Shown here: piece after piece, positions 5,905 to 41,689 of the stretch
Position numbering within the stretch: the stretch's first letter is position 1
How the letters are laid out: each line of letters starts with the position of its first letter
Assembly (NCBI GenBank): GCA_041665345.1
Contig: JBAYJA010000001.1
Location: forward strand, 457,206 to 521,205
DNA: 64,000 bases
Direction of reading: 5' to 3'
Source of the DNA: Patescibacteria group bacterium
GTDB taxonomy: Bacteria; Patescibacteriota; Patescibacteriia; PEXW01
Notes under the pieces: generated by a model
The model's database searches: none
Seen by the model: the letters and a program-made list of their open reading frames with translations, nothing else
Told to the model about the DNA's origin: nothing
Position numbers and translations under genes: made by a program

Positions 5905-5911
5905 TACGTCT

Positions 5912-7411: not shown

Positions 7412-7524
7412 TTTGTTGCCAAGTGTGTGATCAAATACGAGGTTAGTGATCATATGAACCTAGCTTGACACGCGAGGAGTATTGTGATAGTTTCATATGA
7501 AATTAACAAAGTACGTAGAAATGC

Positions 7525-9991: not shown

Positions 9992-10003
9992 GCACCACTC
10001 CGT

Positions 10004-29209: not shown

Positions 29210-30074
29210 ACGCTATTTCATTCTTGGAGCACTCGCGGTCGCCATCCTGGTTGCTGCGGGTGTTTTGGTGTGGTGGCAAAAATCGGAACCGACGCAGTCT
29301 CAATCATCAGCTGTGCTTAACGAGGTAACTCCTGCAGATGTGCAAACTGCTTTTGCACAAGGTGGAGACCAGCAGACCAAGCAGAATCCCGTCGCGGTTA
29401 TCATGCCGCACCACTTGGTGGCAAAGCAGCTGATGGCGGAAATAGCCACAGTGGTTGGTCAGCAGTGTCCTGCGAACATTGTGGTGCTGGGGCCTGATCA
29501 CGAAAATCGTGGCCAGACCATGGTTACAACCAGCGCTACGTCGTGGCAATCACCCTGGGCAACGTACGACGTCGCCGCGGACATTGTGCAAGCCTTGCAC
29601 GCTGTCCCATTTGTCCAAACTAGCGAGTCGGTAATTGCACAGGAACACAGCGCGCTGTACCCGCTACCCTTCCTACAGCATGTTTGTCCCAAAGCAACCT
29701 TTGTCCAACTCATCGTCCGAAGCGGCTTTGATTTGAAAAAGAACGAACAACTTGCCCAGGCTTTGTACACGACGCTCAAACCTGAAGATGTGGTTGTTGC
29801 CAGTGTTGATTTTTCGCACTACAAAACCGCAGCAGAAGCGCGGGTGGAGGATCAGGAGTCCCTTCGATTGTTAGAAGCAGGGGAGTCAGCTGCTCTGGCA
29901 CACATACCAGCCGATGCGCCGGCGGTGCTTGCGGTTGCCATGCGTTTTGCGCAGCTACGTGAGGCAAGTAATTTTCAATTATACAAAAACACCAACGCCG
30001 CTGAAGTGGCAAACGACCCTTCGCAACCCAGCACCACGAGCTACATAACGGGGTGGTGGGGGAGGGGGAGGTAA
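29184..30074 (+). CDS. MEMO1/AmmeMemoRadiSam-B-like protein with N-terminal TM anchor
   Basis: VIMPHHLVA ... IVVLGPDHEN pattern resembling the PHAG...GPxH motifs of the MEMO1 family. Confidence 0.35.
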   Translation: MAKPWGLSKRYFILGALAVAILVAAGVLVWWQKSEPTQSQSSAVLNEVTPADVQTAFAQGGDQQTKQNPVAVIMPHHLVAKQLMAEIATVVGQQCPANIVVLGPDHENRGQTMVTTSATSWQSPWATYDVAADIVQALHAVPFVQTSESVIAQEHSALYPLPFLQHVCPKATFVQLIVRSGFDLKKNEQLAQALYTTLKPEDVVVASVDFSHYKTAAEARVEDQESLRLLEAGESAALAHIPADAPAVLAVAMRFAQLREASNFQLYKNTNAAEVANDPSQPSTTSYITGWWGRGR

Positions 30075-30211
30075 AGATTAAAGGTTGAGTTTTGGATGGC
30101 GGAATGGATTAAGGGTGGAGATAGGGGAAGGGGAGGTAGAAATGTATTGCACGTCTTTCCAAAAAAACTTGGTTCTATTGCATTCTTAACTCGGTAAGTA
30201 TTACCTCCCCC

Positions 30212-30246
30212 AACCCCTCCTTCGAAAGGAGGGGAGGGTTTTTTGG
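30212..30246 (+). terminator. Rho-independent terminator
   Basis: cccctcc-ttcgaaa-ggagggg followed by tttttt. Confidence 0.65.
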
Positions 30247-30307
30247 TTATTTAAAGGCAAGGTTTTTTGTACGTTTCCTCCCCTTTCGAAGGGGAGGTTA
30301 GGAGGGG

Positions 30308-30329
30308 TAACCCTTACCGGTCAAAGCCC
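30308..30329 (+). repeat. left 22-bp direct repeat flanking the accessory island (att-like)
   Basis: gtaacccttaccggtcaaagcc; repeated at 39988-40010; contains near-palindrome GGTAACCCTTACC. Confidence 0.6.
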
Positions 30330-30435
30330 GCGTTACAGAATCAAGCATCATCCAAATCAAACCAATATTCAAAATCTTCCCCCTCCCCGCAACCCCTCTG
30401 GTTCCTTGTCATCAGTCCCTAATTCTTCCCCTCCC

Positions 30436-30480
30436 AATTCGTACATTCGTATTTTCGTAGTATCTTTTCGTAATTCGTAA
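30436..30480 (+). repeat. five TTCGTA hexamer repeats
   Basis: aattcgtacattcgtattttcgtagtatcttttcgtaattcgtaa. Confidence 0.5.
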
Positions 30481-30490
30481 CCATTTTTCC

Positions 30491-30522
30491 GCTAACCTTA
30501 GCCCTTTTGGCTAACCTTAGCC
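30491..30522 (+). promoter_or_regulatory. tandem 13-bp palindromic direct repeats GCTAACCTTAGCC x2 (putative dimeric-regulator operator)
   Basis: Two exact copies with 19-bp phasing, ending 10 bp upstream of the -35 box. Confidence 0.5.
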
Positions 30523-30532
30523 ATTTTAGGTA

Positions 30533-30561
30533 TTGACAGGATTGGCTATCAGGTATATACT
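30533..30561 (+). promoter_or_regulatory. strong sigma70-type promoter at the island entry
   Basis: TTGACA, 17-nt spacer, TATACT. Confidence 0.6.
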
Positions 30562-30562
30562 C

Positions 30563-30877
30563 GTTTGTTGACTTGAAAATCCATTTACTTCTCGGTTCGC
30601 TGAAAGAGAGAGCAGCGCTCCGAACTGTATTGCTTATAGCTTACGGCTTATGGCCTAAGGCTTACCCAAAGGTGCTCTCTCGCAGAGGACCTGTTCTTTT
30701 ATATATATTCTATTTCGCGACATGGAGGGGGAGCATCCGAGTGGAGCGGCATCGCGGCGGGTTTACTCGCCAAAGACGCTTAACCATTCATCGTGATGTG
30801 CGCTTCGGCGCAAAACATCACTCAGCTAATACTCCTCCAGATCAAGGAATAGAAAACAGAAAAACATCGGAGATCAA
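30563..30877 (+). ncRNA. candidate structured leader RNA A (~315 nt)
   Basis: Follows the promoter; gcgcUUCGgcgc tetraloop hairpin; 9-bp long-range helix gagagagca/ugcucucuc; shares tatagcttacggc and atggaggggg motifs with region B. Confidence 0.3.
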
Positions 30878-31144
30878 ATGAAAACTTTACACATTGTAAG
30901 ACGGGCCGGACACTGCATGCTTGAAACAGTGAAATGCACTGTTGGTTTGGCTGCCTTCATCGTACTTGTTGCGATGATTACCGTCATAAGCATCGTGGCC
31001 GTTTACGGGTGTTATCTGGCCTTCAGTGAAGGTGGTACCAACGTCGGCCTGGGCGTAGTCTGCACATTCGGCGTAGTGCTCTGGACTCTTGCGAGGCAAG
31101 GCTGCTTCCAGAGACGAGACCGGGATCTGACCCGGCAGTACTAA
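30878..31144 (+). CDS. small membrane protein (2 TM)
   Basis: ggag RBS; hydrophobic helices. Confidence 0.4.
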   Translation: MKTLHIVRRAGHCMLETVKCTVGLAAFIVLVAMITVISIVAVYGCYLAFSEGGTNVGLGVVCTFGVVLWTLARQGCFQRRDRDLTRQY

Positions 31145-31273
31145 GTAATTTCTGCGGAGTTGTAGTGGATCCGTCCCTACCGCTCCGCAACTCATCCCGG
31201 AAGACGACATAAGCAGAAGATCGTCGTCCGAGATGAGAAGAAGAATTGAAAATGGAAAAAGAAAGAGGGAAAA

Positions 31274-31630
31274 ATGTCGGAAGAGAAAAAGCTTGAATTT
31301 ACGGTGGTTGGGTTCGCAAGTGCTATAAGTGCGCAGGAAGCACTTAGGCGCCTCAAGGACTTAGGCTACAAGATCCTGAGCGTGAAAGAGTTTCAGGAAT
31401 TTGCCAAGCAGATGGTAACGGATGGCCAAGAATGGCCGACGGTGGATCTGCAAGCGCGACTTGAGGGGACGTTGGTAGTTTCCGGCGAAACTATCGAAGG
31501 TGATGAGGAGCCATACTTTCTCACCCTGAATAGCCTTGGAGAATGGGAGAAGGAAAAAAGGGGAAAACAAGAAAACTTGTATAGACCTTACTTCGCTTGC
31601 ATTCTGCCTCAGTCTTCAAAATCTGAATAG
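31274..31630 (+). CDS. small acidic soluble protein
   Basis: gagggaaaaATG RBS; 118 aa. Confidence 0.4.
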   Translation: MSEEKKLEFTVVGFASAISAQEALRRLKDLGYKILSVKEFQEFAKQMVTDGQEWPTVDLQARLEGTLVVSGETIEGDEEPYFLTLNSLGEWEKEKRGKQENLYRPYFACILPQSSKSE

Positions 31631-32183
31631 GTACCGTGGGTTCGCAGGATCACCCAAATAAAAATCCTGCACTCATCTTGGTTGGCTATACGAAAATAGC
31701 CACTCGGGACGAGACAGCACATTCCAACCATGGTTCTGGCAAGTATGGAGGGGGCTAAGTGTGGGCATGAAAGCTATCGCGCGGGGATTTCTCCGCAAAG
31801 ATAGACGACACGTCTTTGCGCTCCGAGGCTTCGGTCTCAAAGGAGAGCACGAGTATCCCAGGCCTACAGCTTTATAGCTTACGGCCTACGGCTACTCACC
31901 ACTTTCACCTCCAGACTTGCCCAAATACATGGAACGAACGTTGACAACTTTTTCTTTCCGACTTGGAGGGGTCACGAGCACTGCATGGACTAGCGTTACC
32001 TGGGGAGCAATCTCCGCGTAACGTCACAGTACATGCATCATGGTCAGGACTTCGGTCCACAGGCCATCTCTCATTCAGTCTTGGCTTTACCCACCTTCGC
32101 TATGAAGCTTCGGTGGGCAAGCGGCTGGGTTCGCTCGCCTCCAGATCGGAAAGAAAGAAACACACTCAAAAGGAGAATAGAAA
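31631..32183 (+). ncRNA. candidate structured RNA B (~550 nt) with several cUUCGg tetraloop hairpins
   Basis: gaggcUUCGgucuc, ggacUUCGgucc, aagcUUCGgugg, tggctat-N7-atagcca; no convincing ORF; shares motifs with region A. Confidence 0.3.
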
Positions 32184-32404
32184 TGTTGCATCCAGCAGTT
32201 TTTCAAATTAGCTGCTTAGCAGCAATATGCGCCATTGTATATGGCATATTGCATATCAAATCACCCTGGAGCCTTGTAGTTGGGTTATTTTTAGGGGTTA
32301 TATCGGTGACTTCTTTGTTAATACCAACTGTCAACAATTCCCCGGCACATGTGACACTTCTAGCTTTCGTCACGGCATATGTGACGGCAGTTTGCAAAAA
32401 GTGA
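32184..32404 (+). CDS. small membrane protein (73 aa)
   Basis: aaggag RBS; TM helices; the listed longer ORF (32033) runs through RNA-like sequence. Confidence 0.35.
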
Positions 32405-32424
32405 TAAAAGGGAACCTTGGCTAC

Positions 32425-32488
32425 GGGTGAGTCGCATGATTCACCCCCCATCCCTGCCGTCGAGTAATGAACGACGGTGGAGATGGGA
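32425..32488 (+). repeat. intercistronic tandem-hairpin element, family 1 (copy 1a)
   Basis: hp1 gggtga-N10-tcaccc; hp2 cccatccctgccgtcg-agtaatga-acgacggtggagatggg; then A-rich spacer, SD, ATG at 32524. Confidence 0.7.
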
Positions 32489-32523
32489 AGAGAAAAAATT
32501 GCAAAACCAAAGGAGAAAATAAA

Positions 32524-33075
32524 ATGACCAAATATGTAGTGATTTGTTGTGCCATCTTAGTGTTGCTGCTGTTAGCGGCGCAGCGTCAGAATGTTGATCT
32601 CACTCCCTTTAACCGGACAGTGAATGCTCCGGTAGTTTCATACACTTTTGAGATTGACAGTTCGAAGGCGGATAAGCAGGTGATCATTACCAGCTTTAAG
32701 GCCTTGCGGTGGCCAAACGTCAAGACCTTGAGTGATACTCTCACTCAAGAAGATTTCTTTAACGTTCTCGTCATACCGAGTGGATCTAGACCGCAAATAA
32801 AATTTACTGTCTACGAAGACAGTACGTACGACATGCGGGAAGTTACGTTCTTTATCCCGTGGCCGGTGTATGATTCACTTCTGGCTGGAAGAGATATTCA
32901 CATTCACACTTTTCCTCATGACTACACCTTCAACGGTGTAGCAAACTGCGAGAGATGTGGGGAGGCCATGTGCGGTGAATTGACCAAAGATAAGGGCACT
33001 GGATGTACCTTGTCTAAGAATCATCCTGGATCTCACAAAAATGAATGGGATCCGGAAAAAGTTTCTTGGGAGTAA
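32524..33075 (+). CDS. secreted protein with Cys-rich C terminus
   Basis: Signal peptide MTKYVVICCAILVLLLLAAQ; C-terminal CERCGEAMCGE...GCTLSKNHPGSH. Confidence 0.45.
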   Translation: MTKYVVICCAILVLLLLAAQRQNVDLTPFNRTVNAPVVSYTFEIDSSKADKQVIITSFKALRWPNVKTLSDTLTQEDFFNVLVIPSGSRPQIKFTVYEDSTYDMREVTFFIPWPVYDSLLAGRDIHIHTFPHDYTFNGVANCERCGEAMCGELTKDKGTGCTLSKNHPGSHKNEWDPEKVSWE

Positions 33076-33102
33076 TTTGCTCCCATTTGTAAGCCCCTTG
33101 AA

Positions 33103-33176
33103 GAAGGCGAGAGACTCTCCATGTCCTCGCCTTCCTATCCCTGCCGTCGAGTAATGAACGACGGTGGAGATGGGAA
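33103..33176 (+). repeat. tandem-hairpin element, family 1 (1b)
   Basis: hp1 gaaggcgag-N14-ctcgccttc; hp2 ctatccctgccgtcgagtaatgaacgacggtggagatggga. Confidence 0.7.
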
Positions 33177-33205
33177 TAGAAATTAAAACCATTGTTGGAG
33201 GAAAG

Positions 33206-33787
33206 ATGTCAAACAAAAGCATAATTTCAAACTTTCTGAGAGCTTATCGTGAAGACGCCGTTACCCTGCGCCGGGTTGGAACAAATGAAAGCTTTCGTGT
33301 CGTCTTCATTTTCAATCACGCGTTGGGCGATTACACAGACGAAAAGCTAAGCGACCCGATATCGCTCACGGAAGGCGCAAAACTTGCTGCCGACGTGCTC
33401 TGCCACAATGCCAACCATATCTGCATGATATTGGGGGGCTTTGTTCAGCACGGAATCAAGGAACCTGGTTTTTCAGAAGCGGTCAGCGCTTTGAAAAATT
33501 CCCTGAATAACCGTGGGAAAATTCATCCCATGCGCGCCGTTTGCCTCATCAAGGAGTTAATGGCGCATGAAAGGACAATTTTATGTACGCGGGATTTTGA
33601 AAAAAGCGAGACGTACAATATCTCCTTTCTCAGAAATTCCGATCTCAAGCTGACAACCGGTTGGATCTCTGACCCTCTTGACCCAGTGACGGCACGCAAG
33701 CTCGCAGATAATCCAAACTGCGAAAATCGCTGGTCAGCGATTGCCATCCTCGATTGCGGACTCTTTAAGTCCCCCAAGACCCAATAG
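33206..33787 (+). CDS. hypothetical protein (193 aa)
   Basis: ggaggaaag RBS; the listed ORF start at 33164 lies inside the repeat. Confidence 0.4.
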   Translation: MSNKSIISNFLRAYREDAVTLRRVGTNESFRVVFIFNHALGDYTDEKLSDPISLTEGAKLAADVLCHNANHICMILGGFVQHGIKEPGFSEAVSALKNSLNNRGKIHPMRAVCLIKELMAHERTILCTRDFEKSETYNISFLRNSDLKLTTGWISDPLDPVTARKLADNPNCENRWSAIAILDCGLFKSPKTQ

Positions 33788-33797
33788 TACCTTGGTT

Positions 33798-33862
33798 GGG
33801 TGAACCTTTGCGCTCACCCTCCCATCCCTGCCGTCGAGCTATGAACGACGGTGGAGATGGGA
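33798..33862 (+). repeat. tandem-hairpin element, family 1 (1c, no gene downstream)
   Basis: hp1 gggtgaa-N9-tcaccc; hp2 tcccatccctgccgtcgagctatgaacgacggtggagatggga. Confidence 0.7.
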
Positions 33863-34061
33863 ACTAAATATAGACGAAAGGTAAGAAAAAAAGTTTATTT
33901 TGTTCGCAATCTCACTAATATTGCTATCTCGAGGGATAGGCGAAAATTGCAATAAACTCGCGAAGGTTTACGGCGGGTAAAAAATATCCCACCAAGCAGT
34001 GAGGTTGATGCAGGCAGAACACCTCACATGCTATCCCACCAAAAAAGTTCATTTGAACTAA

Positions 34062-34141
34062 GACAGGCGCATCACGGATATCTTCTATCCTCACCCCTGT
34101 CTTCCTCTCCAAGCCCACGTCAACACGCGGGTTTAGAGAGG
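34062..34141 (+). repeat. tandem-hairpin element, family 2 (2a)
   Basis: hp1 gacagg...ggata-tcttc-tatcc...cctgtc; hp2 cctctccaagcccacg-tcaaca-cgcgggtttagagagg. Confidence 0.7.
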
Positions 34142-34180
34142 AAAATGAAATAATAAACACATCACATTTGGAGGTAATGG

Positions 34181-34753
34181 ATGCAGGCATTGAATACCTT
34201 TAGTAATGCGCTGAATGTTGCCGGTATAATTCGGAGACGTCGAGCCTTTAAAGCGTTAGCCCAAATGAACCGTGATTTTATGGTTCTTCGAAACAATCTT
34301 CGGTATGCAAGTGGTTACGCCGGCTGCCCTTTGGATCGGCTGGTACTGCTGTTCAAGGCCGTGTCGCCATTTTACGATCGGCTGCCGGAATTTCGTGCCC
34401 TTTTGGTTAGATTCCAGGCCGGCAATTATGATGGAAGTCTGGGCCGTCAAGTGGAAGCTATTTCCACACTCATAGCCCACTTTGGCAATTGTGGGCGCGA
34501 TCCTTACGGCATGAACCGCACGAAGCCTGGGGACGGGGTTACTGAGTACAAGGTGTATCTTGGGAATATTTACGGTTTGTTCCCCCAACCCGTCCCGACC
34601 TGGAAGGAATGCAAGAATTGGTTAAAAGGTGGTTGGGGTAGCCCAAAAATGGCGCACCTCAATGCCTATGACGTTGTGTGTGGCCAGGCGAATAGTTTCG
34701 CCAACCCGCACTTCAAGCCGATGATTGAGGCACTTGAAGTTCTGGGCGCATAA
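34181..34753 (+). CDS. hypothetical protein (190 aa)
   Basis: ggagg RBS. Confidence 0.4.
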   Translation: MQALNTFSNALNVAGIIRRRRAFKALAQMNRDFMVLRNNLRYASGYAGCPLDRLVLLFKAVSPFYDRLPEFRALLVRFQAGNYDGSLGRQVEAISTLIAHFGNCGRDPYGMNRTKPGDGVTEYKVYLGNIYGLFPQPVPTWKECKNWLKGGWGSPKMAHLNAYDVVCGQANSFANPHFKPMIEALEVLGA

Positions 34754-34775
34754 AGTCAAAATTCGCTCATTGGTT

Positions 34776-34844
34776 GGTGGGTTTACAATTCTTGTTGACC
34801 CGCCTTCCTCTCCAAGCCCACGTCTGTACGCGGGTTTAGAGAGG
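34776..34844 (+). repeat. tandem-hairpin element, family 2 (2b)
   Basis: hp1 ggtgggt-N15-acccgcc; hp2 cctctccaagcccacg-tctgta-cgcgggtttagagagg. Confidence 0.7.
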
Positions 34845-34878
34845 AAAAATGAAACAATAAATTTTTTGGAGGTATATC

Positions 34879-35337
34879 ATGTCGATTACAAAAATTCGTA
34901 GTCGTTGCGAAATTTTTGTCTGTCAGGCAACTGTTTCGGGAATTTACCTATCCCTCTGGGTTTTGCTGTGGGGGTTTGATGAATATCTTTCGACCTTCCA
35001 GATCTCAGCGGGTATTTACTTCTGGGTGGGAGGGGTCTTGGCGAGCGGGTTTCTCGCCCTTTCTGTTATGGGCTGGATTTCACAAAATTGGCCCGGATCC
35101 CATATTGAGCAGGTAAAAGATGGGGTCTGCTGGGGCACAAGAAGTGCATTCGGATTCATCTTTATTGGAATAGGGGCTGTATTAACTCTCATCGCCATTG
35201 GGGTGATGATCCATGCCTTCACAGCGAATATTTTGTCTGAGGACGTAGCAGCTATGGCCGCAGGGGCTCTACTCGTATTCGCAATCGCATGCATCGTTGC
35301 TTGCTTTGGCGATATGATCTTAGTGGAGCCAGTTTAA
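34879..35337 (+). CDS. membrane protein (4 TM)
   Basis: ggagg RBS; four hydrophobic helices. Confidence 0.45.
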   Translation: MSITKIRSRCEIFVCQATVSGIYLSLWVLLWGFDEYLSTFQISAGIYFWVGGVLASGFLALSVMGWISQNWPGSHIEQVKDGVCWGTRSAFGFIFIGIGAVLTLIAIGVMIHAFTANILSEDVAAMAAGALLVFAIACIVACFGDMILVEPV

Positions 35338-35362
35338 AAACATTAAAAGAGCTCATTGGTTG

Positions 35363-35433
35363 GTGGGTCTACAATTCTTGTTGACCCGCCTTCCTCTCCA
35401 AGTGCATGTATGGTATACGTGTGCTTAGAGAAG
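35363..35433 (+). repeat. tandem-hairpin element, family 2 (2c) with compensatory changes
   Basis: hp2 ccaagtgcatg-tatggtata-cgtgtgcttagagaag; stem substitutions relative to 2a/2b keep pairing (G-U and A-U replace G-C). Confidence 0.7.
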
Positions 35434-35464
35434 AAAAAACAAATTATGTTTTGAAGGAGTTTCT

Positions 35465-35698
35465 ATGTTTGAGCCAGTCGTTGTGCAAATGAGCATGCTC
35501 GTCGCATGGTACCTGACAGTTTCTAGATATTGCAGGGTAAAGGGTCTGCGATCTCTGGTGGGGTCAGCGATACTAATATTTGGCTTCATTTTCTTCAATA
35601 AGATGAATGAGGCAGAATGGTTTCTACCCTATCTCTTTATAGTCGCTGTTTACTACAACGATAAAAGAGAAAGTTGGATTAGGAATGAGATAAGCTGA
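35465..35698 (+). CDS. small membrane protein (2 TM)
   Basis: aaggag RBS. Confidence 0.4.
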   Translation: MFEPVVVQMSMLVAWYLTVSRYCRVKGLRSLVGSAILIFGFIFFNKMNEAEWFLPYLFIVAVYYNDKRESWIRNEIS

Positions 35699-35750
35699 TC
35701 TCGCGGCGAGGTGCAGATGCATGCAGAACCGCACATTAGCGAACGAAAAG

Positions 35751-35858
35751 ACAGGCACCCTGTACCATCTAGTACGGGGCAGCTGCATTACGGATATCCT
35801 CTATCCGCACGCCTGTCTTCCTCTCCAAGCCCACGTTTGTACGCGGGTTTAGAGAGGA
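35751..35858 (+). repeat. tandem-hairpin element, family 2 (2d, no gene downstream)
   Basis: hp1 gacaggc...cggatat-cctc-tatccg...gcctgtc; hp2 cctctccaagcccacg-tttgta-cgcgggtttagagagg. Confidence 0.65.
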
Positions 35859-36079
35859 ACATAGTTTCCGAAAAATGTGGCTGGTCCAGCAGGTGGGAGC
35901 TGGCGGATGATAGCCCGGAGCGAAGGAACGCTCGGCTTCGTGAAAACGGGGTAACAGGGATCGAAACCCTTCCAGCCTACAAATATTGCACGTCGTGACC
36001 CCAAGCAAGCATGTAAGGCACGACACTTTCCCAGTCTTGCTTGCTAGCAGACTGAAGCGCAGATGGTTCTGCGACGTTT

Positions 36080-36148
36080 GGGCGAGATGTACCATTCCTC
36101 GCCCCTTTCCTTAAATTATCGTGAACTCCACGATGTCTTAAGGAAGGG
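36080..36148 (+). repeat. tandem-hairpin element, family 4
   Basis: hp1 gggcgag-N11-ctcgccc; hp2 ctttccttaa-N22-ttaaggaaggg; then aaaata...aaggag ATG at 36173. Confidence 0.65.
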
Positions 36149-36172
36149 AAAATATACCTGAAGGAGTTTAGC

Positions 36173-36409
36173 ATGATTTTCTTAAAGTTTGTTCTCGTAT
36201 TGTACTTTTTATTTATTGGCCTCATACTCATTTTCCGCATTGGGAAAGTGGTCTCGCAACTTTTGCATCTCGTGAATACACTTGGATGGAGGCTGCGAAA
36301 CAAATGCTGGCTGATGAGGTCAAAGTACAGAATGTATCGCATCAAACGGTACCTTGAAAAGCATATTCGAGAGTGTGAAATTCAGATTGCTCAGCTAGAG
36401 CAACGTTAA
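36173..36409 (+). CDS. small membrane protein (78 aa)
   Basis: aaggag RBS; N-terminal TM. Confidence 0.35.
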   Translation: MIFLKFVLVLYFLFIGLILIFRIGKVVSQLLHLVNTLGWRLRNKCWLMRSKYRMYRIKRYLEKHIRECEIQIAQLEQR

Positions 36410-36437
36410 CCGCACATTTTGGTATGTACAGTATTTA

Positions 36438-36503
36438 GGGCGAATTACAAGATTCGCCCCTTTCCTCAACTTGTTCTGTGCGAACAGAACGGGTGGAGGA
36501 AAG
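36438..36503 (+). repeat. tandem-hairpin element, family 5 (variant of family 4)
   Basis: hp1 gggcgaa-N8-ttcgccc; hp2 cctttcctcaac...gggtggaggaaag with inner stem gttctg/cagaac. Confidence 0.65.
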
Positions 36504-36525
36504 AAACACAGAAAGGAGAACAAAG

Positions 36526-36873
36526 ATGTATTTTGAAAGAACATTCGTACTTATGGGCGCCGTCTTGATGGCCGGGTTAGCCGTTGTTATCCTTGCGACA
36601 GCGCCTGTACAGGTAATTTTCTTGAGTACCGGCACCCCGCAGGTCATTAACGGCTACAACGCCGATTCAACCCGCGGGTTGTTCTTGGAGGTGCCCGCAA
36701 CCTTTTCTCTTACAGATTCAGCAAAAGTCTGGGTGAAGGTCGAAGCGGTGGTTCGGGAATGGGAAGAATCACACCCTGAATACCGAACTGATGGAACGGC
36801 CCCGCAGATGCGGTTTCAGACCGGACAGCGTGACACGGTGGATAGGTTGTTCTACCACCTAATTCGAAAGTAA
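36526..36873 (+). CDS. small secreted protein, member of the L[EK][VL]PVxxxLxDS paralog family
   Basis: Signal peptide; motif LEVPATFSLTDS; start moved to 36526 (aaggag RBS). Confidence 0.45.
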   Translation: MYFERTFVLMGAVLMAGLAVVILATAPVQVIFLSTGTPQVINGYNADSTRGLFLEVPATFSLTDSAKVWVKVEAVVREWEESHPEYRTDGTAPQMRFQTGQRDTVDRLFYHLIRK

Positions 36874-36883
36874 GTAATTTCAT

Positions 36884-36948
36884 GGGCGAGTCTAGTGATT
36901 CGCCCTCCCATCTCTGCAGTCAATACAGAATGACCGTAGAGATGGGAG
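36884..36948 (+). repeat. tandem-hairpin element, family 1 (1d)
   Basis: hp1 gggcga-N10-tcgccc; hp2 tcccatctctgcagtca-atacagaa-tgaccgtagagatggga. Confidence 0.7.
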
Positions 36949-36968
36949 AAGGAAAACAAGGAGAAAAA

Positions 36969-37319
36969 ATGTTAAGTAAAACAAATGATCGATTAACGAC
37001 CATTCTTGTGTACCTACTGGTCGGGATTTGTGCGATCACTGTTCCGGAGTATTTCAAATCGGACGTGCGAATTGTTGCGTTTGGTGGTCCCACAACGTAT
37101 GGGCATGATCATACGTCGAATGAGATGGTCCTTGAGGTTCCGGTTGATCTTCGCCAGTGCAGTGAAAAATCAGCGATTCCTACGATTTGCAATCTCATTC
37201 GTGAACGGGAATCACAAGAGGTTCGAGGTAATCTCATCCTCGGCGATTTTGTTGGATTACAACCGTACGGTTCGTTTGAGGGGTTAGCAAAAGCAGTCTT
37301 CAAGCTCGTACAACGATAA
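36969..37319 (+). CDS. small secreted/membrane-anchored protein, paralog family
   Basis: N-terminal TM anchor; motif LEVPVDLRQCSE; aaggag RBS. Confidence 0.45.
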   Translation: MLSKTNDRLTTILVYLLVGICAITVPEYFKSDVRIVAFGGPTTYGHDHTSNEMVLEVPVDLRQCSEKSAIPTICNLIRERESQEVRGNLILGDFVGLQPYGSFEGLAKAVFKLVQR

Positions 37320-37346
37320 CTGCACTCTGACTCAGAGTACATTTTC

Positions 37347-37410
37347 GGGCAAACCTATGTGTTTGCCCTCCCATCCTTGCGGTCAATACAGAATGACCGC
37401 GGAGATGGGA
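37347..37410 (+). repeat. tandem-hairpin element, family 1 (1e)
   Basis: hp1 gggcaaac-N6-gtttgccc; hp2 tcccatccttgcggtca-atacagaa-tgaccgcggagatggga. Confidence 0.7.
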
Positions 37411-37435
37411 AAGAAGTTAAAAAATGGAGTAAGAA

Positions 37436-37612
37436 ATGAAAAAATTTGTCTCAATTTTTACCATCGCGGGGACAGGCGTCCTCTCCTTCCTTTTCATGAG
37501 TTGGGTTTTGAAAGAAGTGAAACCCGATGTGTCAATTGGTTGGGTTGTCATGATCAGTGTGCTGACCATACTCGGCGGGTGGTTAGTAGAAAAAAAATGC
37601 CGCAGAATATAG
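37436..37612 (+). CDS. small membrane protein (58 aa, 2 TM); below the ORF-track size cutoff
   Basis: ATG 25 nt after the hairpin element with ggag RBS; hydrophobic helices; next element begins 12 nt after its stop. Confidence 0.3.
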   Translation: MKKFVSIFTIAGTGVLSFLFMSWVLKEVKPDVSIGWVVMISVLTILGGWLVEKKCRRI

Positions 37613-37623
37613 CACATATGAAC

Positions 37624-37692
37624 GGCGAGAGACTCTCCTAGTCCTCGCCCTCCCATCCCCGCGGTCAATGCAGAATGACCGTGGAGATGGGA
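37624..37692 (+). repeat. tandem-hairpin element, family 1 (1f)
   Basis: hp1 ggcgag-N14-ctcgcc; hp2 tcccatccccgcggtca-atgcagaa-tgaccgtggagatggga. Confidence 0.7.
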
Positions 37693-37725
37693 AAACGAAA
37701 AAACTAATAAGGAGTTAGGAGTATC

Positions 37726-38094
37726 ATGACGAATCAGAATGAATTCAAAACGCCCATCCAATTAGTTCTCGGGGTTGGCGACAAGAAGCACCAAGGACTT
37801 CTCTTGGTGTTTGAAGATTTTCTCAAAGGTCCTGAGATAAGCATGGAGCAAATCACAGCTCCCGCCATCACGGGATCGATACCAGAACTGTCGGTCCAGC
37901 ACATCACCGTATGGTTTGATGGAAAGGATGTCGACAAGTTGCACTTCACGAATCAGGAAAGCTGCATCGTGTGGAACCATTCCTACCTGGACGGAAAGCC
38001 GCAAAGCTTCTTTTTGGAAGCTACGCCGGGTAAAATTCTCCGTGCGGTAAAGGCCATCTTCATCAAGCGGATGGTATCCTGGATGCAGGAATAA
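37726..38094 (+). CDS. hypothetical soluble protein (122 aa)
   Basis: aaggag RBS. Confidence 0.4.
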   Translation: MTNQNEFKTPIQLVLGVGDKKHQGLLLVFEDFLKGPEISMEQITAPAITGSIPELSVQHITVWFDGKDVDKLHFTNQESCIVWNHSYLDGKPQSFFLEATPGKILRAVKAIFIKRMVSWMQE

Positions 38095-38113
38095 TAGCTT
38101 TGTCCTTTGGCTG

Positions 38114-38173
38114 GGCGAACTCTGTTCGCCCTCCCATCCCTGTGGTCAATGCAGAATGACCGTGGAGATGGGA
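38114..38173 (+). repeat. tandem-hairpin element, family 1 (1g)
   Basis: hp1 gggcgaa-ctctg-ttcgccc; hp2 tcccatccctgtggtca-atgcagaa-tgaccgtggagatggga. Confidence 0.7.
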
Positions 38174-38199
38174 AAACGAAAAACTAAGGAGCTTGAATA

Positions 38200-38424
38200 A
38201 TGAAAAAGTATTTTTTAAGCAAGTGCACAATTGTCTTGATGGTCATGCTCATGTTCATTTGTAACCTGTCGGGTTACTCCGAATGGGCAATGAGCTTACC
38301 GTCTTGGAAAAAAGAATTAATGGGGCACTTTGTCCCAAGTTGCTGCCTGTTGTTAATCATTATCATTATTGACCAGGCAACAATTCGGTGGCGCACCTCA
38401 GAAAAGGTGATAGCCAACAAATAG
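38200..38424 (+). CDS. small membrane protein (2 TM)
   Basis: aaggag RBS. Confidence 0.35.
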   Translation: MKKYFLSKCTIVLMVMLMFICNLSGYSEWAMSLPSWKKELMGHFVPSCCLLLIIIIIDQATIRWRTSEKVIANK

Positions 38425-38475
38425 AAGCTGTTGCAAAAAGCGATGTCATAAACATAAGTACATGGAGGTAAAAAA

Positions 38476-38859
38476 ATGAAAAGTAGCACAATTTTCTGGA
38501 TCTTCATCGCTTGCATTCTTGCTTTTGCCGCAATCCCACGCTTTGTGGCAGTTGCAGAGCTTAAACAAGCTACTAAGAGGGTGCAAGTTTTTGCCGAGGC
38601 GATCACAACGTACGCCGGTGTTGACGCTGACGGTGATAGCGTTGAGCTGCTAAAGCTCCCGGTTCATTATGAGCTGAGGGATTCGGTAGCGGCAGCCACG
38701 AAGGTCCAAACTGCGCTTGCAGTTTGGGCTACCGGTAATCCTTGGCTATCCTTCGCAAATGAGGTCTACGAGTATCGGGACAAGTACTTTGACAATGATT
38801 CAACAATCATCTCGGCTGAGTACTACGTCATCGAACCGACGCCCGTCGGTTACAAGTAA
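38476..38859 (+). CDS. small secreted protein, paralog family (LKLPVHYELRDS)
   Basis: Signal peptide; clear paralog of 39214..39594. Confidence 0.5.
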   Translation: MKSSTIFWIFIACILAFAAIPRFVAVAELKQATKRVQVFAEAITTYAGVDADGDSVELLKLPVHYELRDSVAAATKVQTALAVWATGNPWLSFANEVYEYRDKYFDNDSTIISAEYYVIEPTPVGYK

Positions 38860-38874
38860 ACTTTCTTTGGAATC

Positions 38875-38940
38875 GAGGTCTGCGTCAAAACCAGACCTCC
38901 CCCTCCTTAAGCTGGGACAAAAGTGTCGGCATGAGGAGGG
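38875..38940 (+). repeat. tandem-hairpin element, family 3 (3a)
   Basis: hp1 gaggtctg-N9-cagacctc; hp2 ccctccttaagc...gcatgaggaggg; then A-rich. Confidence 0.7.
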
Positions 38941-38967
38941 AAAAAATATCAAGAAAAGGATAAATAC

Positions 38968-39099
38968 ATGAAACGAGTTTGCAACTTCTTATTCAGTCTG
39001 GTCTTATGGATTATATCCATTGACCATTGTGACAATTATGCGGGTTGTACTGTATGCCATGCGTATAAAGCGTATGCCAAGCAGCTTCGAACAAAGTAG
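38968..39099 (+). CDS. possible 43-aa Cys-rich membrane peptide; below the ORF-track cutoff
   Basis: MKRVCNFLFSLVLWIISIDHCDNYAGCTVCHAYKAYAKQLRTK; flanked by family 3 elements 28 nt upstream and 20 nt downstream. Confidence 0.25.
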   Translation: MKRVCNFLFSLVLWIISIDHCDNYAGCTVCHAYKAYAKQLRTK

Positions 39100-39118
39100 A
39101 TTGAACATTAAGAATACT

Positions 39119-39186
39119 GAGGTCTGCCTAACAACCAGACCTCCCTCTCCTTGAGCCCTGATGAAAATCAAGGTTGAAGGAGAAGA
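39119..39186 (+). repeat. tandem-hairpin element, family 3 (3b)
   Basis: hp1 gaggtctg-N9-cagacctc; hp2 cctctccttgagcc...ggttgaaggagaag. Confidence 0.7.
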
Positions 39187-39213
39187 GTAAAACATTAGTA
39201 CGGAGGTATAAAG

Positions 39214-39594
39214 ATGAAAAAGAAAACATTCGCAATTATTTTTTGGGTGGTCGCTGCTTGCGTCCTCACCTGCGCTGCATATTTGGATTTTACGGATTAT
39301 GCAGAACGCGAGGATGCCGAAAAGCGAGTACAGGTTTTCCCCGACTCGATTATCTTCGTCGGGAGTAGCAGCACTACTGGGGAAGATTCATTGTTTCTAA
39401 AACTACCTGTACGCTACAATCTTGCAGATTCGTCCGGAGCATTTTTGAAGTGCTCTCACGTGCTTGCATGCTGGCTTGCTGATCATCGTTTCAAAGCACG
39501 GGTCGCAATGCGGTACAGCGAATGCGATACATACCGTGCCGACGACTCCAATACCATCGTGGTCGCGGAGTACTACTTGGTGGAAAAGAAGTAA
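39214..39594 (+). CDS. small secreted protein, paralog family (LKLPVRYNLADS)
   Basis: Signal peptide; paralog of 38476..38859; ggagg RBS. Confidence 0.5.
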   Translation: MKKKTFAIIFWVVAACVLTCAAYLDFTDYAEREDAEKRVQVFPDSIIFVGSSSTTGEDSLFLKLPVRYNLADSSGAFLKCSHVLACWLADHRFKARVAMRYSECDTYRADDSNTIVVAEYYLVEKK

Positions 39595-39609
39595 AGCTCT
39601 TTGGGAATC

Positions 39610-39672
39610 GAGGTCTGCATCTGTGGACCTCCCTCTCCTCAAGCTGGTAAAAATTATAGGTTTGAGGAGGGG
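39610..39672 (+). repeat. tandem-hairpin element, family 3 (3c, no gene downstream)
   Basis: hp1 gaggtc-N10-gacctc; hp2 cctctcctcaagc...gtttgaggagggg. Confidence 0.7.
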
Positions 39673-39946
39673 AAAAACTTCGGAGACTCTTCGCTGCACT
39701 CAGAGTGACAGGGAAGAGCCAGGGGACTATAGTAGGGCTGGGTCTTTCCTTGGCACGCTGCGTACCTTCGTACGATCTCAGGTTACACGAGCATAAGCTG
39801 GAACTCTCTCCCAGCAGATGAACGGATGACCCGGGTATCACTCGCACGGTACCGGCGTGTCAAGCAAGGATCCAAAGGAAAGAAAGAGTTGTTGAATAGG
39901 GTGGCGAGTTTGCGTGCTGGCGAGCTGGCGCGTTGGTTTTTTTACA

Positions 39947-39973
39947 CCCAGAGCGGCTTTTCTAAGCCGCGGT
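39947..39973 (+). repeat. conserved hairpin element, copy 3 of 3
   Basis: tttttttacacccagagcggcttttctaagccgcggtg, just inside the right island boundary. Confidence 0.6.
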
Positions 39974-39987
39974 GTTAGTTTCCCGGC

Positions 39988-40010
39988 GTAACCCTTACCG
40001 GTTGAAAGCC
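39988..40010 (+). repeat. right 22/23-bp direct repeat flanking the island (att-like)
   Basis: gtaacccttaccggttgaaagcc; 21/22 identity with the copy at 30308. Confidence 0.6.
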
Positions 40011-40036
40011 AGTACGAACGGGGAGCTTGAAAAAAG

Positions 40037-41689
40037 TTGAGAAAATCAGTACAGTACAGGCACTCTATGTGGCAGAAACTCTGGACCAAGCTCTCCACGA
40101 CCATTCTGGGTGGGGCAATCGTCATTGGCTTTACCGGCATTATCAGCCGGGTTTTGGGTTTGGTGCGGGATCGGCTCCTGGCTTCTGAGTTTGGTGGTGG
40201 TGGCGCGTTGGATACGTACTTTGCCGCTTTCAAACTGCCTGACTTCATCTTCAACATCCTGGTGCTTGGCGCACTTTCCTCCTCTTTCATCCCGGTTTTC
40301 GTTGGGTACCTAAAACGAGCCGAGTCAGACCCGCAAGGCAAGGACGATGCCTGGCAAGTGGCGAATTCTATTCTCAACCTCCTGTTGATCGTTTTGGTGG
40401 GTTTGGGCATTCTCTTTGCCATTTTTGCGAATCATCTGGTACCGCTCATCGCTCCTGGGTTTACTGGTGAGAAGTTGGAAGAAACTGTCCACCTCACGCG
40501 CATCATGCTCCTGGCCATTGTCTTCTTTGGCGCTAGCAATATCGTTTCGGCGATTCTCAATTCTTTCAAACGGTTTTTTGCCTTTGCCTTGGCACCCGTG
40601 CTGTACAACCTGGGCATTATCGCAGGTATTCTGTTCTTTGTGCCAAAGTGGGGGATTGCTGGTCTGGCGTATGGCGTGGTGTTGGGTGCAGTTGCGCATT
40701 TGGCCATCCAAATTCCTGGCGTTATGAAGCTTGGCTTTCGGTACCGCCGCATTTTATCGTGGAAGCATCCGGGGGTGCAGCGCGTCGGGAAGCTCATGCT
40801 GCCTCGGACGTTTGGTCTAGCCGTGAACCAGATTGACCAGCTGGTCAGCACAATTATTGCCACCAGCTTGGCAGCCGGGAGTTTGACGCAATTCAACTTT
40901 GCGAACAATTTGCAAAATTTTCCCATCAACGTGTTCGGCGTGTCTTTAGCCATTGCCGTCTTTCCTGCTTTCTCCGAAGCGTTTGCCGCCAAAGACATGG
41001 GTGCATTTGTTCGGCATTTTTCGCTCACCGTTCGGCGTTTGCTGGTGGTGATGATTCCGGCGTCAGTGCTGCTGCTTATCCTGCGCGCGCAGATTGTCCG
41101 GGTCGTCGTTGGTGCCGAAGCGTTTGACTGGGACGCAACCTACCTCACTGCGCAAGTCCTGGGAGCATTTACCCTGTCGCTATTTGCGCAGGCACTCATT
41201 CCCATTCTGGCGCGTTCATTCTACGCTTTGCACGACACAGCCACCCCAGTGAAAGTTGGGATCCTGGCAGTTGCAGTGGATATTGCTGCCGCGCTGATTC
41301 TCTCCAAGCACTACGGGATTGTGGGCGTGGCCATCGCCTTCTCCCTATCAAGTTTAGTGAACATGCTACTGCTGTACATTATCCTTCGGGTACGGTTGGG
41401 GAGTTTGGACGGCGCACGGATATTCCGTTCTACCAGCCGCATTGTCATTGCCTCGCTCCTGGCGGGTATAGCCTGCTGGTCTAGCTTGCGCTTCGCAGCA
41501 CTCGGTGTTGATATGAGCCGCTTGGTGGGGATTTTCCTCCAAGGTTTGGTTGCAGGAAGTATTGGGATGGTGGTCTACCTCATTGCAGCTTCAGTACTCC
41601 GCGTTGAAGAAGTAGAAGTCTTCCGCGCGTGGTGGTATCGGGTGAAAAAATTCATTACGAATGGAAATGGAACCAAGGCGCAGGTATGA
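40037..41689 (+). CDS. murJ: lipid II flippase MurJ (MviN)
   Basis: Multi-TM 550-aa protein with MurJ N-terminal signature (ISRVLGLVRDRLLASEFG...DTYFAAFKLPDF). Confidence 0.85.
   Translation: MRKSVQYRHSMWQKLWTKLSTTILGGAIVIGFTGIISRVLGLVRDRLLASEFGGGGALDTYFAAFKLPDFIFNILVLGALSSSFIPVFVGYLKRAESDPQGKDDAWQVANSILNLLLIVLVGLGILFAIFANHLVPLIAPGFTGEKLEETVHLTRIMLLAIVFFGASNIVSAILNSFKRFFAFALAPVLYNLGIIAGILFFVPKWGIAGLAYGVVLGAVAHLAIQIPGVMKLGFRYRRILSWKHPGVQRVGKLMLPRTFGLAVNQIDQLVSTIIATSLAAGSLTQFNFANNLQNFPINVFGVSLAIAVFPAFSEAFAAKDMGAFVRHFSLTVRRLLVVMIPASVLLLILRAQIVRVVVGAEAFDWDATYLTAQVLGAFTLSLFAQALIPILARSFYALHDTATPVKVGILAVAVDIAAALILSKHYGIVGVAIAFSLSSLVNMLLLYIILRVRLGSLDGARIFRSTSRIVIASLLAGIACWSSLRFAALGVDMSRLVGIFLQGLVAGSIGMVVYLIAASVLRVEEVEVFRAWWYRVKKFITNGNGTKAQV

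Follow-up and report, generated by a model that had tools for sequence, protein, structure and literature searches.

Introduction

Structured elements that recur between genes are known in several forms. The RNase III sites of the phage T7 early genes and the Correia/nemis repeats of Neisseria are mRNA elements that are cleaved by RNase III, and cleavage at sites of this type leaves a protective 3' hairpin on the upstream message. The REP/BIME, BOX and ERIC elements, imperfect palindromes that recur between genes and are transcribed along with operons, can stabilise the mRNA upstream of them; they are dispersed genome-wide in both orientations, and the REPs are tied to RAYT transposases. The HK022 put RNA consists of two stem-loops about 1 nucleotide (nt) apart, about 70 nt in total. 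With Bacillus subtilis EAR and Tn916 canT, put belongs to the structured nascent-RNA antiterminators, which serve long operons with internal terminators (PMC11658703). The rAID-1 arrays of the Bacteroidales hold up to 31 small variable genes, with skewed GC content and intergenic repeats reminiscent of integrons, and are defined by a conserved XerD-family recombinase (bioRxiv 10.1101/471110). Here we describe tandem-hairpin modules, pairs of adjacent RNA hairpins that separate nearly all the genes of a 10-kb island of small genes in a chromosomal stretch of 64,000 nt, hereafter the window, from an uncultured Patescibacteria group bacterium (GenBank assembly GCA_041665345.1, contig JBAYJA010000001.1, positions 457,206 to 521,205 of the forward strand).

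The island lies between a Memo-like gene (29184-30074) and murJ (40037-41689; identified as MurJ by Pfam). A first-pass annotation, made by a model that read the letters of the window, had listed sixteen hairpin elements between the small genes and knew of no described class for them. We have followed up that observation in the 64-kb window and in about 240 kb of related DNA, asking how regular the elements are, whether they are conserved in other genomes, on which strand they act, and what known system they most resemble.

Results

Anatomy and placement of the modules

All sixteen elements are found where they had been placed, as families 1a (three copies), 2 (four), 3 (two), 1b (four) and 4 (three). 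Two more modules lie upstream, at 31153-31237 and 31644-31713, which brings the number in the window to 18 (Table 1). Each module consists of a GC-rich hairpin, H1, followed after 0-2 nt by a second hairpin, H2, whose base is pyrimidine-only on the 5' side and purine-only on the 3' side. Over 44 curated modules from nine loci, the median length of H1 is 28 nt and that of H2 is 43 nt. The gap between the two hairpins, counted with a detector that permitted at most 3 nt, is 0 nt in 24 of 41 modules, 1 nt in 12 and 2 nt in 5. All 18 window modules fold as two adjacent hairpins, with energies of -28 to -44 kcal/mol and z scores of -5.1 to -8.9, and for each of them none of 200 dinucleotide shuffles folds as stably as the module itself. 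H2 alone, a helix of 15-20 base pairs (bp), contributes -17 to -29 kcal/mol.

The position of the modules relative to the genes is also regular. Wherever a gene directly precedes a module, H1 begins 8-29 nt after the stop codon, and the next start codon is 20-38 nt beyond the end of H2, across a spacer that is 40-70% A (versus 25% in the window). The layout first described, with two adjacent hairpins, an A-rich spacer, a Shine-Dalgarno sequence and a start codon, is borne out by the folds and by this geometry. So is the statement that a module lies between nearly every pair of genes, as 15 of the 16 gene junctions have one, the exception being the junction g13|g14 (38425-38475). The spacing of the modules varies from 244 to more than 1000 nt. 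Four modules, those with H2 at 31672, 33820, 35819 and 39632, have no gene immediately 3' of them, and other structured RNAs or non-coding sequence are found there instead. Three of these are the copies without a downstream gene that had been noticed before; the fourth, at 31672, lies upstream of the range covered at that time.

How specific is this arrangement to the island and to its relatives, the arrays described below? One fixed detector for compact H1-then-H2 tandems, the same for all DNA, found 43 on the gene strand in 38.1 kb of arrays versus 4 in 199.6 kb of other DNA. Tandems in the reverse order, that is, on the minus strand, numbered 4 in the arrays and 1 in the other DNA. Within the window the same detector placed 19 tandems in the island and none in the remaining 54 kb. 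The tandem-hairpin observation is confirmed, and it is far beyond chance.

Sequence families, covariation and strand

The families had been described as unrelated in primary sequence, which is an overstatement. The H2 families have in common a loose YYCUCCCA...UGGGAGRR base, and they are probably homologous. The claim of compensatory changes within families needs a similar adjustment: two-sided changes do occur within the window, at one pair in family 1 (C-G in three copies, G-C in three) and at one pair in family 2, but they are rare, and strong covariation is seen only with other genomes included.

One such case is the family of module E0. A sequence-only MAFFT alignment of eight H2 copies from six loci (five genomes) gives 16 pairs, of which 8 are changed on both sides, and 93.8% of the cells are paired. 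The covariation score is 0.435 versus 0.251 +/- 0.033 for shuffled alignments, of which 0 in 500 reach the observed value, and alignments with slid partners score 0.13 or less. One column shows A-U, G.U and G-C states, a route by way of a wobble intermediate. The expectation that H2 would covary once homologs were added has thus held for this family. The suggestion that covariance models be built family by family succeeded in part: model R1, for the E0 family, detects members at all array loci and gives no credible match elsewhere, but it recovers its own family only. A single covariance model across all the H2 families was tried and was not feasible.

On which strand does selection act? G.U pairs form only in the sense RNA and A.C mismatches pair only in the antisense, so that the counts of the two can tell the strands apart. 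In a strand-symmetric, ungapped count over the 44 curated modules, G.U versus A.C is 29:2 in H1 and 71:35 in H2, which favours the mRNA strand. The pyrimidine/purine asymmetry of H2 looks the same when read on the reverse-complement strand and is therefore uninformative in this respect. The view of the first-pass annotation that the modules are selected structure on the mRNA strand is supported by the cross-genome covariation of H2 together with the G.U bias.

Certain details of the helices are also conserved. In 22 of 44 modules the H2 helix is first broken at a distance of 7-8 bp from its base, and 17 of these 22 breaks are a 5'-C opposite a 3'-A. Counted by mismatch, 22 of the 5'-C/3'-A type occur in the first 14 bp from the H2 base, and 17 of them are at position 7-8; H2 of the related array L024 has a bulged C in place of the C.A mismatch. 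The first 8 nt after H1 are 88-100% pyrimidine at all loci except L012, which has a single module (75%). The U share of the first 8 nt of H2 is 35% in the window versus 62-65% in L024 and L026, and in AT-richer relatives the H2 arms read UUUUUCC.../...GAAAAA. Several L024 H1 hairpins, taken with the U-rich run that follows, score as intrinsic-terminator-like. The first description had stressed the likeness of the H2 arms to anti-Shine-Dalgarno and Shine-Dalgarno sequences. That likeness is not conserved, and for the 3' arm it is confined to the window lineage; because it is absent in the AT-richer relatives, the conserved feature is a pyrimidine run that is re-paired downstream, and not Shine-Dalgarno mimicry.

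The three family 1a H2 copies (32447, 33134 and 33821) are spaced by exactly 687 nt, twice. Tandem duplication was considered as the cause of this spacing and rejected, the units being 26.6% alike versus 25.2 +/- 1.8% for offset controls.

Related arrays in other genomes

The island travels with murJ. Candidatus Kerfeldbacteria are among the best named relatives of the window MurJ. In every genome with a MurJ of 77-80% identity, small genes form a block immediately before murJ. Such blocks, of 2.1 to more than 8 kb, are found in L010 (GCA_964362715.1), L012, L014 (GCA_964486505.1) and L024, and their genes are unannotated. A 2.6-kb block is present in L026 (59% MurJ identity). In L025 (63%), the stop codon of a DUF4012 gene is 3 nt before the murJ start (9997-10001), and as read from this junction L025 is an empty site for the array. 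The Memo-like gene was also considered as the anchor or insertion point of the island and was rejected; relatives whose Memo is 51-53% identical lack an island 3' of that gene. A metagenome scan with a motif taken from the leader added L020, L021 and L022. The L020 array ends at the signal-peptidase gene lepB, so that murJ is not the end neighbour of every array.

The arrays share a common plan, which runs from GCTAACCTTAGC-like palindromes and a promoter through a homologous leader, in which a structured leader RNA motif (LRM) occurs one to three times, then genes with H1-H2 tandems, an internal structured RNA that we call RNA(c), and a 3' RNA, to a terminator. The H1-H2 tandem layout is found in the arrays L010, L012, L014, L020, L024, L026 and L027, and the same architecture, with the promoter and the three further structured RNAs, recurs in seven or more arrays of related species. 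The contents of the plan are far more variable. Between L010 and L014 the modules are 80-94% identical, the 3' RNA 86% and murJ 77%, and nothing between the modules aligns. The cassette proteins of different arrays show no similarity at blastp E < 1e-3, except for spurious open reading frames (ORFs) that overlap the LRM. The window gene g5 has a 45% identical homolog in L027, another murJ-proximal array with all the same RNA parts; the homolog stands after RNA(c) there, and g5 stands before RNA(c) in the window. A 32% identical homolog stands alone elsewhere and is followed by no more than a plain hairpin-plus-U terminator. Contigs that belong to one species but come from different samples (L001/L002/L003 and L010/L011/L018) are identical, and no module polymorphism is seen among them.

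The island and its genes

The 17 cassette ORFs are also called as genes on the source contig, which is metagenomic and 1.08 Mb long (ENA ERZ27249449, k141_1145919), and their codon periodicity, with GC content higher at the first than at the second position (GC1 > GC2), is similar to that of housekeeping genes. None of the 17 proteins has an above-threshold match in Pfam, PHROGs or PADLOC, and the Pfam matches found are weak and sub-threshold. Paralogy is limited to g14 and g16 (39% identity, E = 2e-22) and a weak relative, g9, and all three have a hydrophobic N-terminal segment. No relative of g14 was found in a word-indexed protein search. The family of g5 is larger, with 225 clusters at E < 1e-3 in an exhaustive search, all of it unannotated; it has an invariant N-R-T inside a conserved GWNRT consensus and a conserved VFLGNI..GLFT stretch. 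The AlphaFold model of g5 has a predicted local distance difference test score (pLDDT) of 97. Because that model has no PDB fold match and the family no meaningful match to Pfam or to PDB sequences, g5 yields no functional lead.

A consensus promoter and an intrinsic terminator frame the island, and a consensus scan found no strong promoter-like site between the promoter at 30533 and the terminator at 39912. We therefore infer from these signals that the island is transcribed as a single unit of about 9.3 kb. The pair of GCTAACCTTAGC palindromes upstream of the promoter is probably an operator for a dimeric regulator. The GC content of the arrays is 3-10 points under that of the adjacent murJ-lepA genes (window, L010, L014, L024 and L027); in the window the array (30075-40036) has a GC content of 0.472 versus 0.518 and 0.494 for its flanks.

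Two other observations concern the edges of the island. A 15-nt direct repeat, GTAACCCTTACCGGT, at 30307-30321 and 39989-40003, brackets it (about 22/24 with flanks), and none is seen in the relatives. The repeat could be due to chance, or could be the scar of a rearrangement that placed the array and murJ beside the Memo-like gene. Two CCCCTCC-TTCGAAAGG-AGGGG hairpins lie 3' of the Memo-like gene at 30190-30300; behind the first, which is terminator-like, comes a T-run. That same first hairpin is also found 3' of Memo in L007, on a contig that ends 176 nt past the gene.

Other structured RNAs of the arrays

The LRM is 125-210 nt long and includes two characteristic hairpins, GYGGG-UUUA-CUCRC and GGGCUUCGGYCC. 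From nine copies in five genomes 33 pairs are predicted, and compensatory changes are seen at 13 of these. The motif follows the array promoter, frequently as tandem copies, and in some cases stands between cassettes; it is a candidate leader regulator or processive antiterminator. RNA(c) has 28 predicted pairs, 6 of which covary, and an invariant GGAUGAKAGCCCGGAGC stretch. The 3' RNA, with 37 predicted pairs of which 8 covary, is found at the 3' end of every murJ-proximal array, directly before the terminator. A promoter-like site (39705-39733, 10/12) lies upstream of the 3' RNA in the window, and given this site the 3' RNA might be a separate small RNA in the window genome.

A tRNA-like piece, whose acceptor-like stem has 7 bp and whose T arm is canonical (GGTTCGATCC), lies on the reverse strand of L020 (about 6210-6285), between two cassettes. 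ARAGORN makes no tRNA call for it. The piece would fit RNase P/Z-type processing of the array transcript.

Table 1. Coordinates of the tandem-hairpin modules, genes, signals and other structured RNAs (window positions unless a related locus is named)
Feature	Position	Strand	Remarks
Module E0	H1 31153-31189, H2 31191-31237	+	z -7.6; family in every array locus by model R1; covaries
Module E0b	H1 31644-31670, H2 31672-31713	+	z -5.8; model R1 52.6 bits
Module 1a-1	H1 32425-32446, H2 32447-32487	+	z -7.5
Module 1a-2	H1 33105-33132, H2 33133-33175	+	z -7.3
Module 1a-3	H1 33798-33819, H2 33820-33862	+	z -5.5; 318 nt without gene downstream
Module 2-1	H1 34061-34102, H2 34103-34142	+	z -6.6
Module 2-2	H1 34776-34804, H2 34806-34845	+	z -8.2
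Module 2-3	H1 35362-35390, H2 35392-35434	+	z -8.2; upper stem replaced yet still pairs
Module 2-4	H1 35777-35818 (longer form from 35749), H2 35819-35858	+	z -5.1; followed by RNA(c)
Module 3-1	H1 36081-36103, H2 36104-36148	+	z -6.4; inverted repeat I24
Module 3-2	H1 36438-36459, H2 36460-36503	+	z -8.9
Module 1b-1	H1 36885-36904, H2 36905-36948	+	z -8.8
Module 1b-2	H1 37347-37368, H2 37369-37410	+	z -8.9
Module 1b-3	H1 37624-37649 (H1 type of module 1a-2), H2 37651-37692	+	z -8.4; repeat D4
Module 1b-4	H1 38113-38131, H2 38132-38173	+	z -6.7
Module 4-1	H1 38875-38899, H2 38901-38940	+	z -6.9
Module 4-2	H1 39119-39143, H2 39146-39183	+	z -6.7
Module 4-3	H1 39610-39631, H2 39632-39672	+	z -7.1; followed by 3' RNA, no gene
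Cassette ORFs, n = 17	within 30878..39594	+	43-193 aa; each with Shine-Dalgarno sequence
Cassette ORFs, first half	30878-31144, 31274-31630, 32183-32404, 32524-33075, 33206-33787, 34181-34753 (g5), 34879-35337, 35465-35698	+	
Cassette ORFs, second half	36173-36409, 36526-36873 (g9), 36969-37319, 37436-37612, 37726-38094, 38200-38424, 38476-38859 (g14), 38968-39099, 39214-39594 (g16)	+	
Palindrome GCTAACCTTAGC, two copies	30487-30523		directly 5' of the -35 box; conserved in L010, L012, L020, L027; variant form in L014
Promoter, sigma-70-type, TTGACA-17-TATACT	30533..30561	+	consensus at 11/12 positions; conserved in L010, L012, L014, L020, L027
LRM, closed by UGGAGG/CCUCCAGAU	30720..30843	+	no Rfam match
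Long LRM-like region, closed by UUGGAGG/CCUCCAGAUCGG	31951..32156	+	before gene 32183-32404; inverted repeat I12, fold, 3' motif
LRM in relatives	L010 ~5815-5966; L012 ~8215-8354, 8395-8514; L014 ~7125-7268, 7310-7428, 7785-7936; L020, L022, L024, L026, L027		
RNA(c), GGCUGG...CCAGCC around four or five short hairpins	35879..35977	+	internal; conserved in L010, L014, L027
RNA(c) in relatives	L010 7826-7914; L014 8475-8563; L027 ~4699-4796		
3' RNA, long irregular hairpin, ~110 nt	39752..39861	+	conserved in L010, L012, L014, L027
3' RNA in relatives	L010 ~9760-9870; L012 ~9716-9827; L014 ~9815-9925; L027		
Intrinsic terminator, canonical hairpin and run of seven Ts	39912..39943	+	end of array, upstream of murJ; terminator scan

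Comparison with described element classes

The modules match no attC, CRISPR or Rfam family, and they are probably not REP elements. No RYYYAAC...GTTRRRY core-site pair at 35-130 nt is present on either strand of the island, and none frames any of the 18 modules; an attC site is a single hairpin of 57-141 nt with extrahelical bases, and each module is two separate hairpins. Tyrosine or serine recombinase and HUH transposase domains are absent from the ORFs of at least 150 aa in the 64-kb window, and no recombinase is found among the called neighbours of seven related arrays. Of the parts that make a complete integron (intI, attI and Pc), the integrase was sought as a Phage_integrase domain, which is absent from the same window ORFs and the same neighbours. 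The first-pass annotation was correct in setting attC sites and CRISPR repeats aside, the latter because ORFs with Shine-Dalgarno sequences lie between the copies, the spacing is irregular, and there are several repeat families; a CRISPR array has near-identical direct repeats of 24-48 nt, regularly spaced around short non-coding spacers.

As for REP/BIME elements, 0 copies of the module are found in the 54 kb outside the island and all copies have a single orientation, as counted in the window, which is 64 kb of the 1.08-Mb contig; no RAYT (Y1) transposase domain was found in the window. Several L024 H1 hairpins have the form of an intrinsic terminator, a GC-rich hairpin with a U-rich tract directly behind it, and the window H1 hairpins, with their C-rich tract, do not. 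The length of the H2 helix and its internal irregularity are compatible with an RNase III site. Neither mark of a rAID-1 array, a XerD-family recombinase at its head and immunity-gene homologs, is seen, as no recombinase was found in the window and the cassette proteins are without PADLOC or Pfam matches.

Nor did database searches find a described class, in agreement with the first report. At the gathering threshold, Rfam 15 gives only tRNA-Tyr in the window, and an E-value scan of 30000-40100 gives only chance microRNA-like matches far below threshold. Pattern scans of viral contigs for families 1 and 2 gave 0 matches, and parts of the island had no blastn match among the phages and plasmids of the collections searched. 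Full-text literature searches on integrons, hypervariable small-protein loci and structured RNAs of the Patescibacteria found nothing relevant.

Discussion

What might the modules do? Our leading proposal, which we hold tentatively and rate as somewhat short of probable, is that they act in cis, as RNA elements that punctuate a single long polycistronic mRNA. The message would run from the conserved promoter and structured leader to the canonical terminator before murJ. H1 and the pyrimidine run after it would make an intrinsic-terminator-type hairpin, weak (C-rich) in the window and U-rich in the AT-richer relatives. It would be leaky, so that most polymerases pass, and after a cut in the RNA it would block 3' exonucleases. 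H2, forming directly behind H1, would clamp the pyrimidine run with the downstream purine run and would be the recognition or cleavage site of a helix-specific factor, whether RNase III-type, RNase P-type or some other protein, with the C.A irregularity or bulged C probably serving processing or protein binding. H2 would also keep the C/U-rich tract off the next Shine-Dalgarno sequence and away from Rho loading, and the next cistron would initiate on its unstructured A-rich leader. The net effect would be that each cassette is delimited, separately stabilised and separately translated, whatever gene it carries, and such a gene-independent insulator would explain why the modules are conserved amid gene turnover.

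The proposal builds on features that are directly observed: the anatomy, position and orientation of the modules, their conservation across species, the covariation, and the sense-strand wobble bias. Read-through at H1, cleavage, and the identity of the factor are steps that we infer. Among the roles suggested in the first-pass annotation, mRNA processing or stabilisation fits best.

Several points weigh against this proposal. The window H1 hairpins are without the T-run of the clear terminators (at 30214 and 39912), so that H1 may terminate hardly any transcription. An RNA role by itself leaves it unexplained that modules on either side of unrelated genes are nearly identical, and no candidate partner protein was identified. 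As to the strand, the modules were initially chosen by plus-strand folding, a caveat on the wobble bias, and the binomial p-values for that bias (5e-7 for H1, 6e-4 for H2) are optimistic because copies within a family are not independent. About one third of the non-Watson-Crick positions in H2 are A.C, which pair on the antisense strand only, and the summed energies of the 18 modules on the two strands are near equal (-709.5 versus -686.3 kcal/mol).

The flanking of unrelated ORFs by near-identical modules (88-96%) would speak for the modules as DNA-level cassette boundaries, recombination sites folded as single-stranded DNA or cruciforms, where promoterless cassettes would be inserted, excised or shuffled by a recombinase encoded elsewhere. 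Integron attC sites and the repeats of the rAID-1 immunity-gene arrays would be the analogues. The 687-nt units without residual similarity agree with such a role, as do the module families common to species whose cassette genes all differ, the variation in array length from 0 kb (L025) through 2.1-4.5 kb to about 10 kb, the different position of g5 relative to RNA(c) in the window and in L027, and the low GC content of the arrays. H1 and H2 types reassort, the same H1 being joined to H2-1a and to H2-1b (repeat D4), and the conserved irregular base of H2 resembles the extrahelical bases of attC. We nevertheless consider boundaries of this kind unlikely. No recombinase or HUH domain is encoded in the larger window ORFs or beside the seven arrays, and attC core sites are absent from the island. 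The wobble bias is on the coding strand, whereas in integron attC sites the opposite, non-coding strand is the one that folds. Contigs of one species are identical across samples, modules included, and the conserved order of the backbone (leader, E0, RNA(c), 3' RNA) argues against free shuffling. A combination of the two roles can also be imagined, in which the murJ-proximal arrays are a new gene-cassette platform, and to us this is possible though doubtful. Promoterless cassettes would be exchanged between the parts of a fixed RNA scaffold, made up of the operator-flanked promoter, the LRM leader, the tandem-hairpin modules, RNA(c) and the 3' RNA, and the tandem hairpins would be both expression punctuation and boundaries of gain and loss, without a neighbouring integrase.

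Might the modules be simply repeated palindromes of a selfish or neutral kind, comparable to REP/BIME, Correia/nemis or BOX elements, that spread within the array by transposition, gene conversion or local duplication and affect the mRNA incidentally? Some observations speak for this. Same-family copies are adjacent (1a, 2, 1b and 4), as expected from local duplication or conversion, one L010 module is duplicated along with the start of the next gene (75% over 198 nt), and two L024 H2 copies are 100% identical. A selfish origin is rather improbable, however, for elements that are confined to arrays (outside them the detector found none in the remaining 54 kb of the window and 4 in all 199.6 kb of such DNA), in a single orientation and at fixed distances from stop and start codons. 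Their identity across species exceeds that of an essential gene and they show compensatory changes, which speaks for purifying selection on structure, and no RAYT or transposase domain is seen in the window (ORFs of at least 150 aa). We give equally little credence to translational riboregulation, in which H2, by its anti-Shine-Dalgarno/Shine-Dalgarno mimicry, would be a thermosensor, decoy or standby site that switches the next cistron. GGAG, GAGG or AGGA is present in 15 of the 18 window H2 3' arms, the 5' arms contain CUCC or CCUC, and H2 ends 20-38 nt upstream of the start codon; yet the UUUUUCC/GAAAAA arms of the AT-richer relatives lack the likeness, the genuine Shine-Dalgarno sequence is not part of H2 and stays free in predicted folds, H2 is very stable and its ensembles show no competing fold, and the four modules noted above have no gene immediately downstream to regulate. 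Finally, the modules might be processive antitermination signals of the HK022 put type, which as nascent RNA would modify RNA polymerase and would be renewed after each cassette. With two stem-loops 0-2 nt apart and 60-90 nt per module they have the right form, and such systems do occur in long operons with internal terminator-like hairpins (PMC11658703). This is very improbable in our estimation. One element per operon suffices in the known cases, which leaves 18 per 10 kb unexplained, the conserved LRM leader is a better candidate for the role, and similarity to an antiterminator RNA was seen neither in sequence nor in Rfam.

If the modules do punctuate and stabilise the operon, as we propose, they would constitute a compact natural insulator, a terminator-type hairpin fused to a clamped helix, that works independently of the gene. 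Such a design would be of interest to RNA biology and to the construction of synthetic operons. The genomes of the candidate phyla radiation (CPR)/Patescibacteria are tiny and sparing in non-coding DNA, yet in this clade an array can take up as much as about 10 kb, with RNA elements conserved above a neighbouring essential gene and proteins that turn over completely. Conserved RNAs together with protein turnover point to diversifying pressure, such as might act on surface or membrane proteins, in immunity, or in interaction with a host or phage. At least four unannotated structured RNA classes, namely the modules, the LRM, RNA(c) and the 3' RNA, are open to modelling and search, and the arrays make the origin of integrase-free cassette arrays directly testable.

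How, then, does the locus compare with the systems with which we began? In its overall organisation it has much in common with integron attC arrays: small, unannotatable, promoterless ORFs in the same orientation, a single upstream promoter, structured repeats more alike than the genes between them, and a conserved unpaired base in the hairpin. The modules differ from attC sites in having no cores, two hairpins instead of one, no integrase or attI found, a wobble bias on the coding strand, and an RNA backbone. The rAID-1 arrays are similar as long arrays of small variable genes with skewed GC content and intergenic repeats; the island differs in that no recombinase was found, in belonging to another phylum, and in having no match among the immunity and defence profiles tested. 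The whole locus is thus most like a sedentary integron or a rAID-1 array, yet it departs from them in the defining features of core sites, recombinase and single hairpin. With REP/BIME elements the contrast is in distribution, as the modules occur in one type of locus, in one orientation, and at fixed distances from coding sequences.

Among RNA systems, put, EAR and canT occur once per operon, near the start. Here it is the LRM leader, and not the modules, that occupies that position, and although no similarity to these RNAs is detected, by analogy the LRM may be an antiterminator that carries RNA polymerase across the H1 hairpins. H1 itself resembles intrinsic terminators and 3' stabiliser hairpins, being a GC-rich hairpin soon after the stop codon with a pyrimidine run behind it; unlike theirs, the run in the window is C-rich, and it is always re-paired by a purine run into a longer second hairpin. 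Like the modules, the RNase III sites of T7 and the Correia repeats are imperfect helices that lie between the cistrons of a polycistronic mRNA, extend over about two turns and have an internal irregularity. They have no sequence similarity to the modules, the separate H1 and the pyrimidine/purine clamp have no counterpart there, and they are found in a phage early region or genome-wide, as opposed to a chromosomal array of ORFs that turn over. By these analogies, the modules appear to work most like intercistronic terminator or stabiliser hairpins and RNase III-type processing sites, and their conservation across related species, set against the replacement of the genes between them, suggests that tandem-hairpin modules are an undescribed way to punctuate a long, fast-changing operon.

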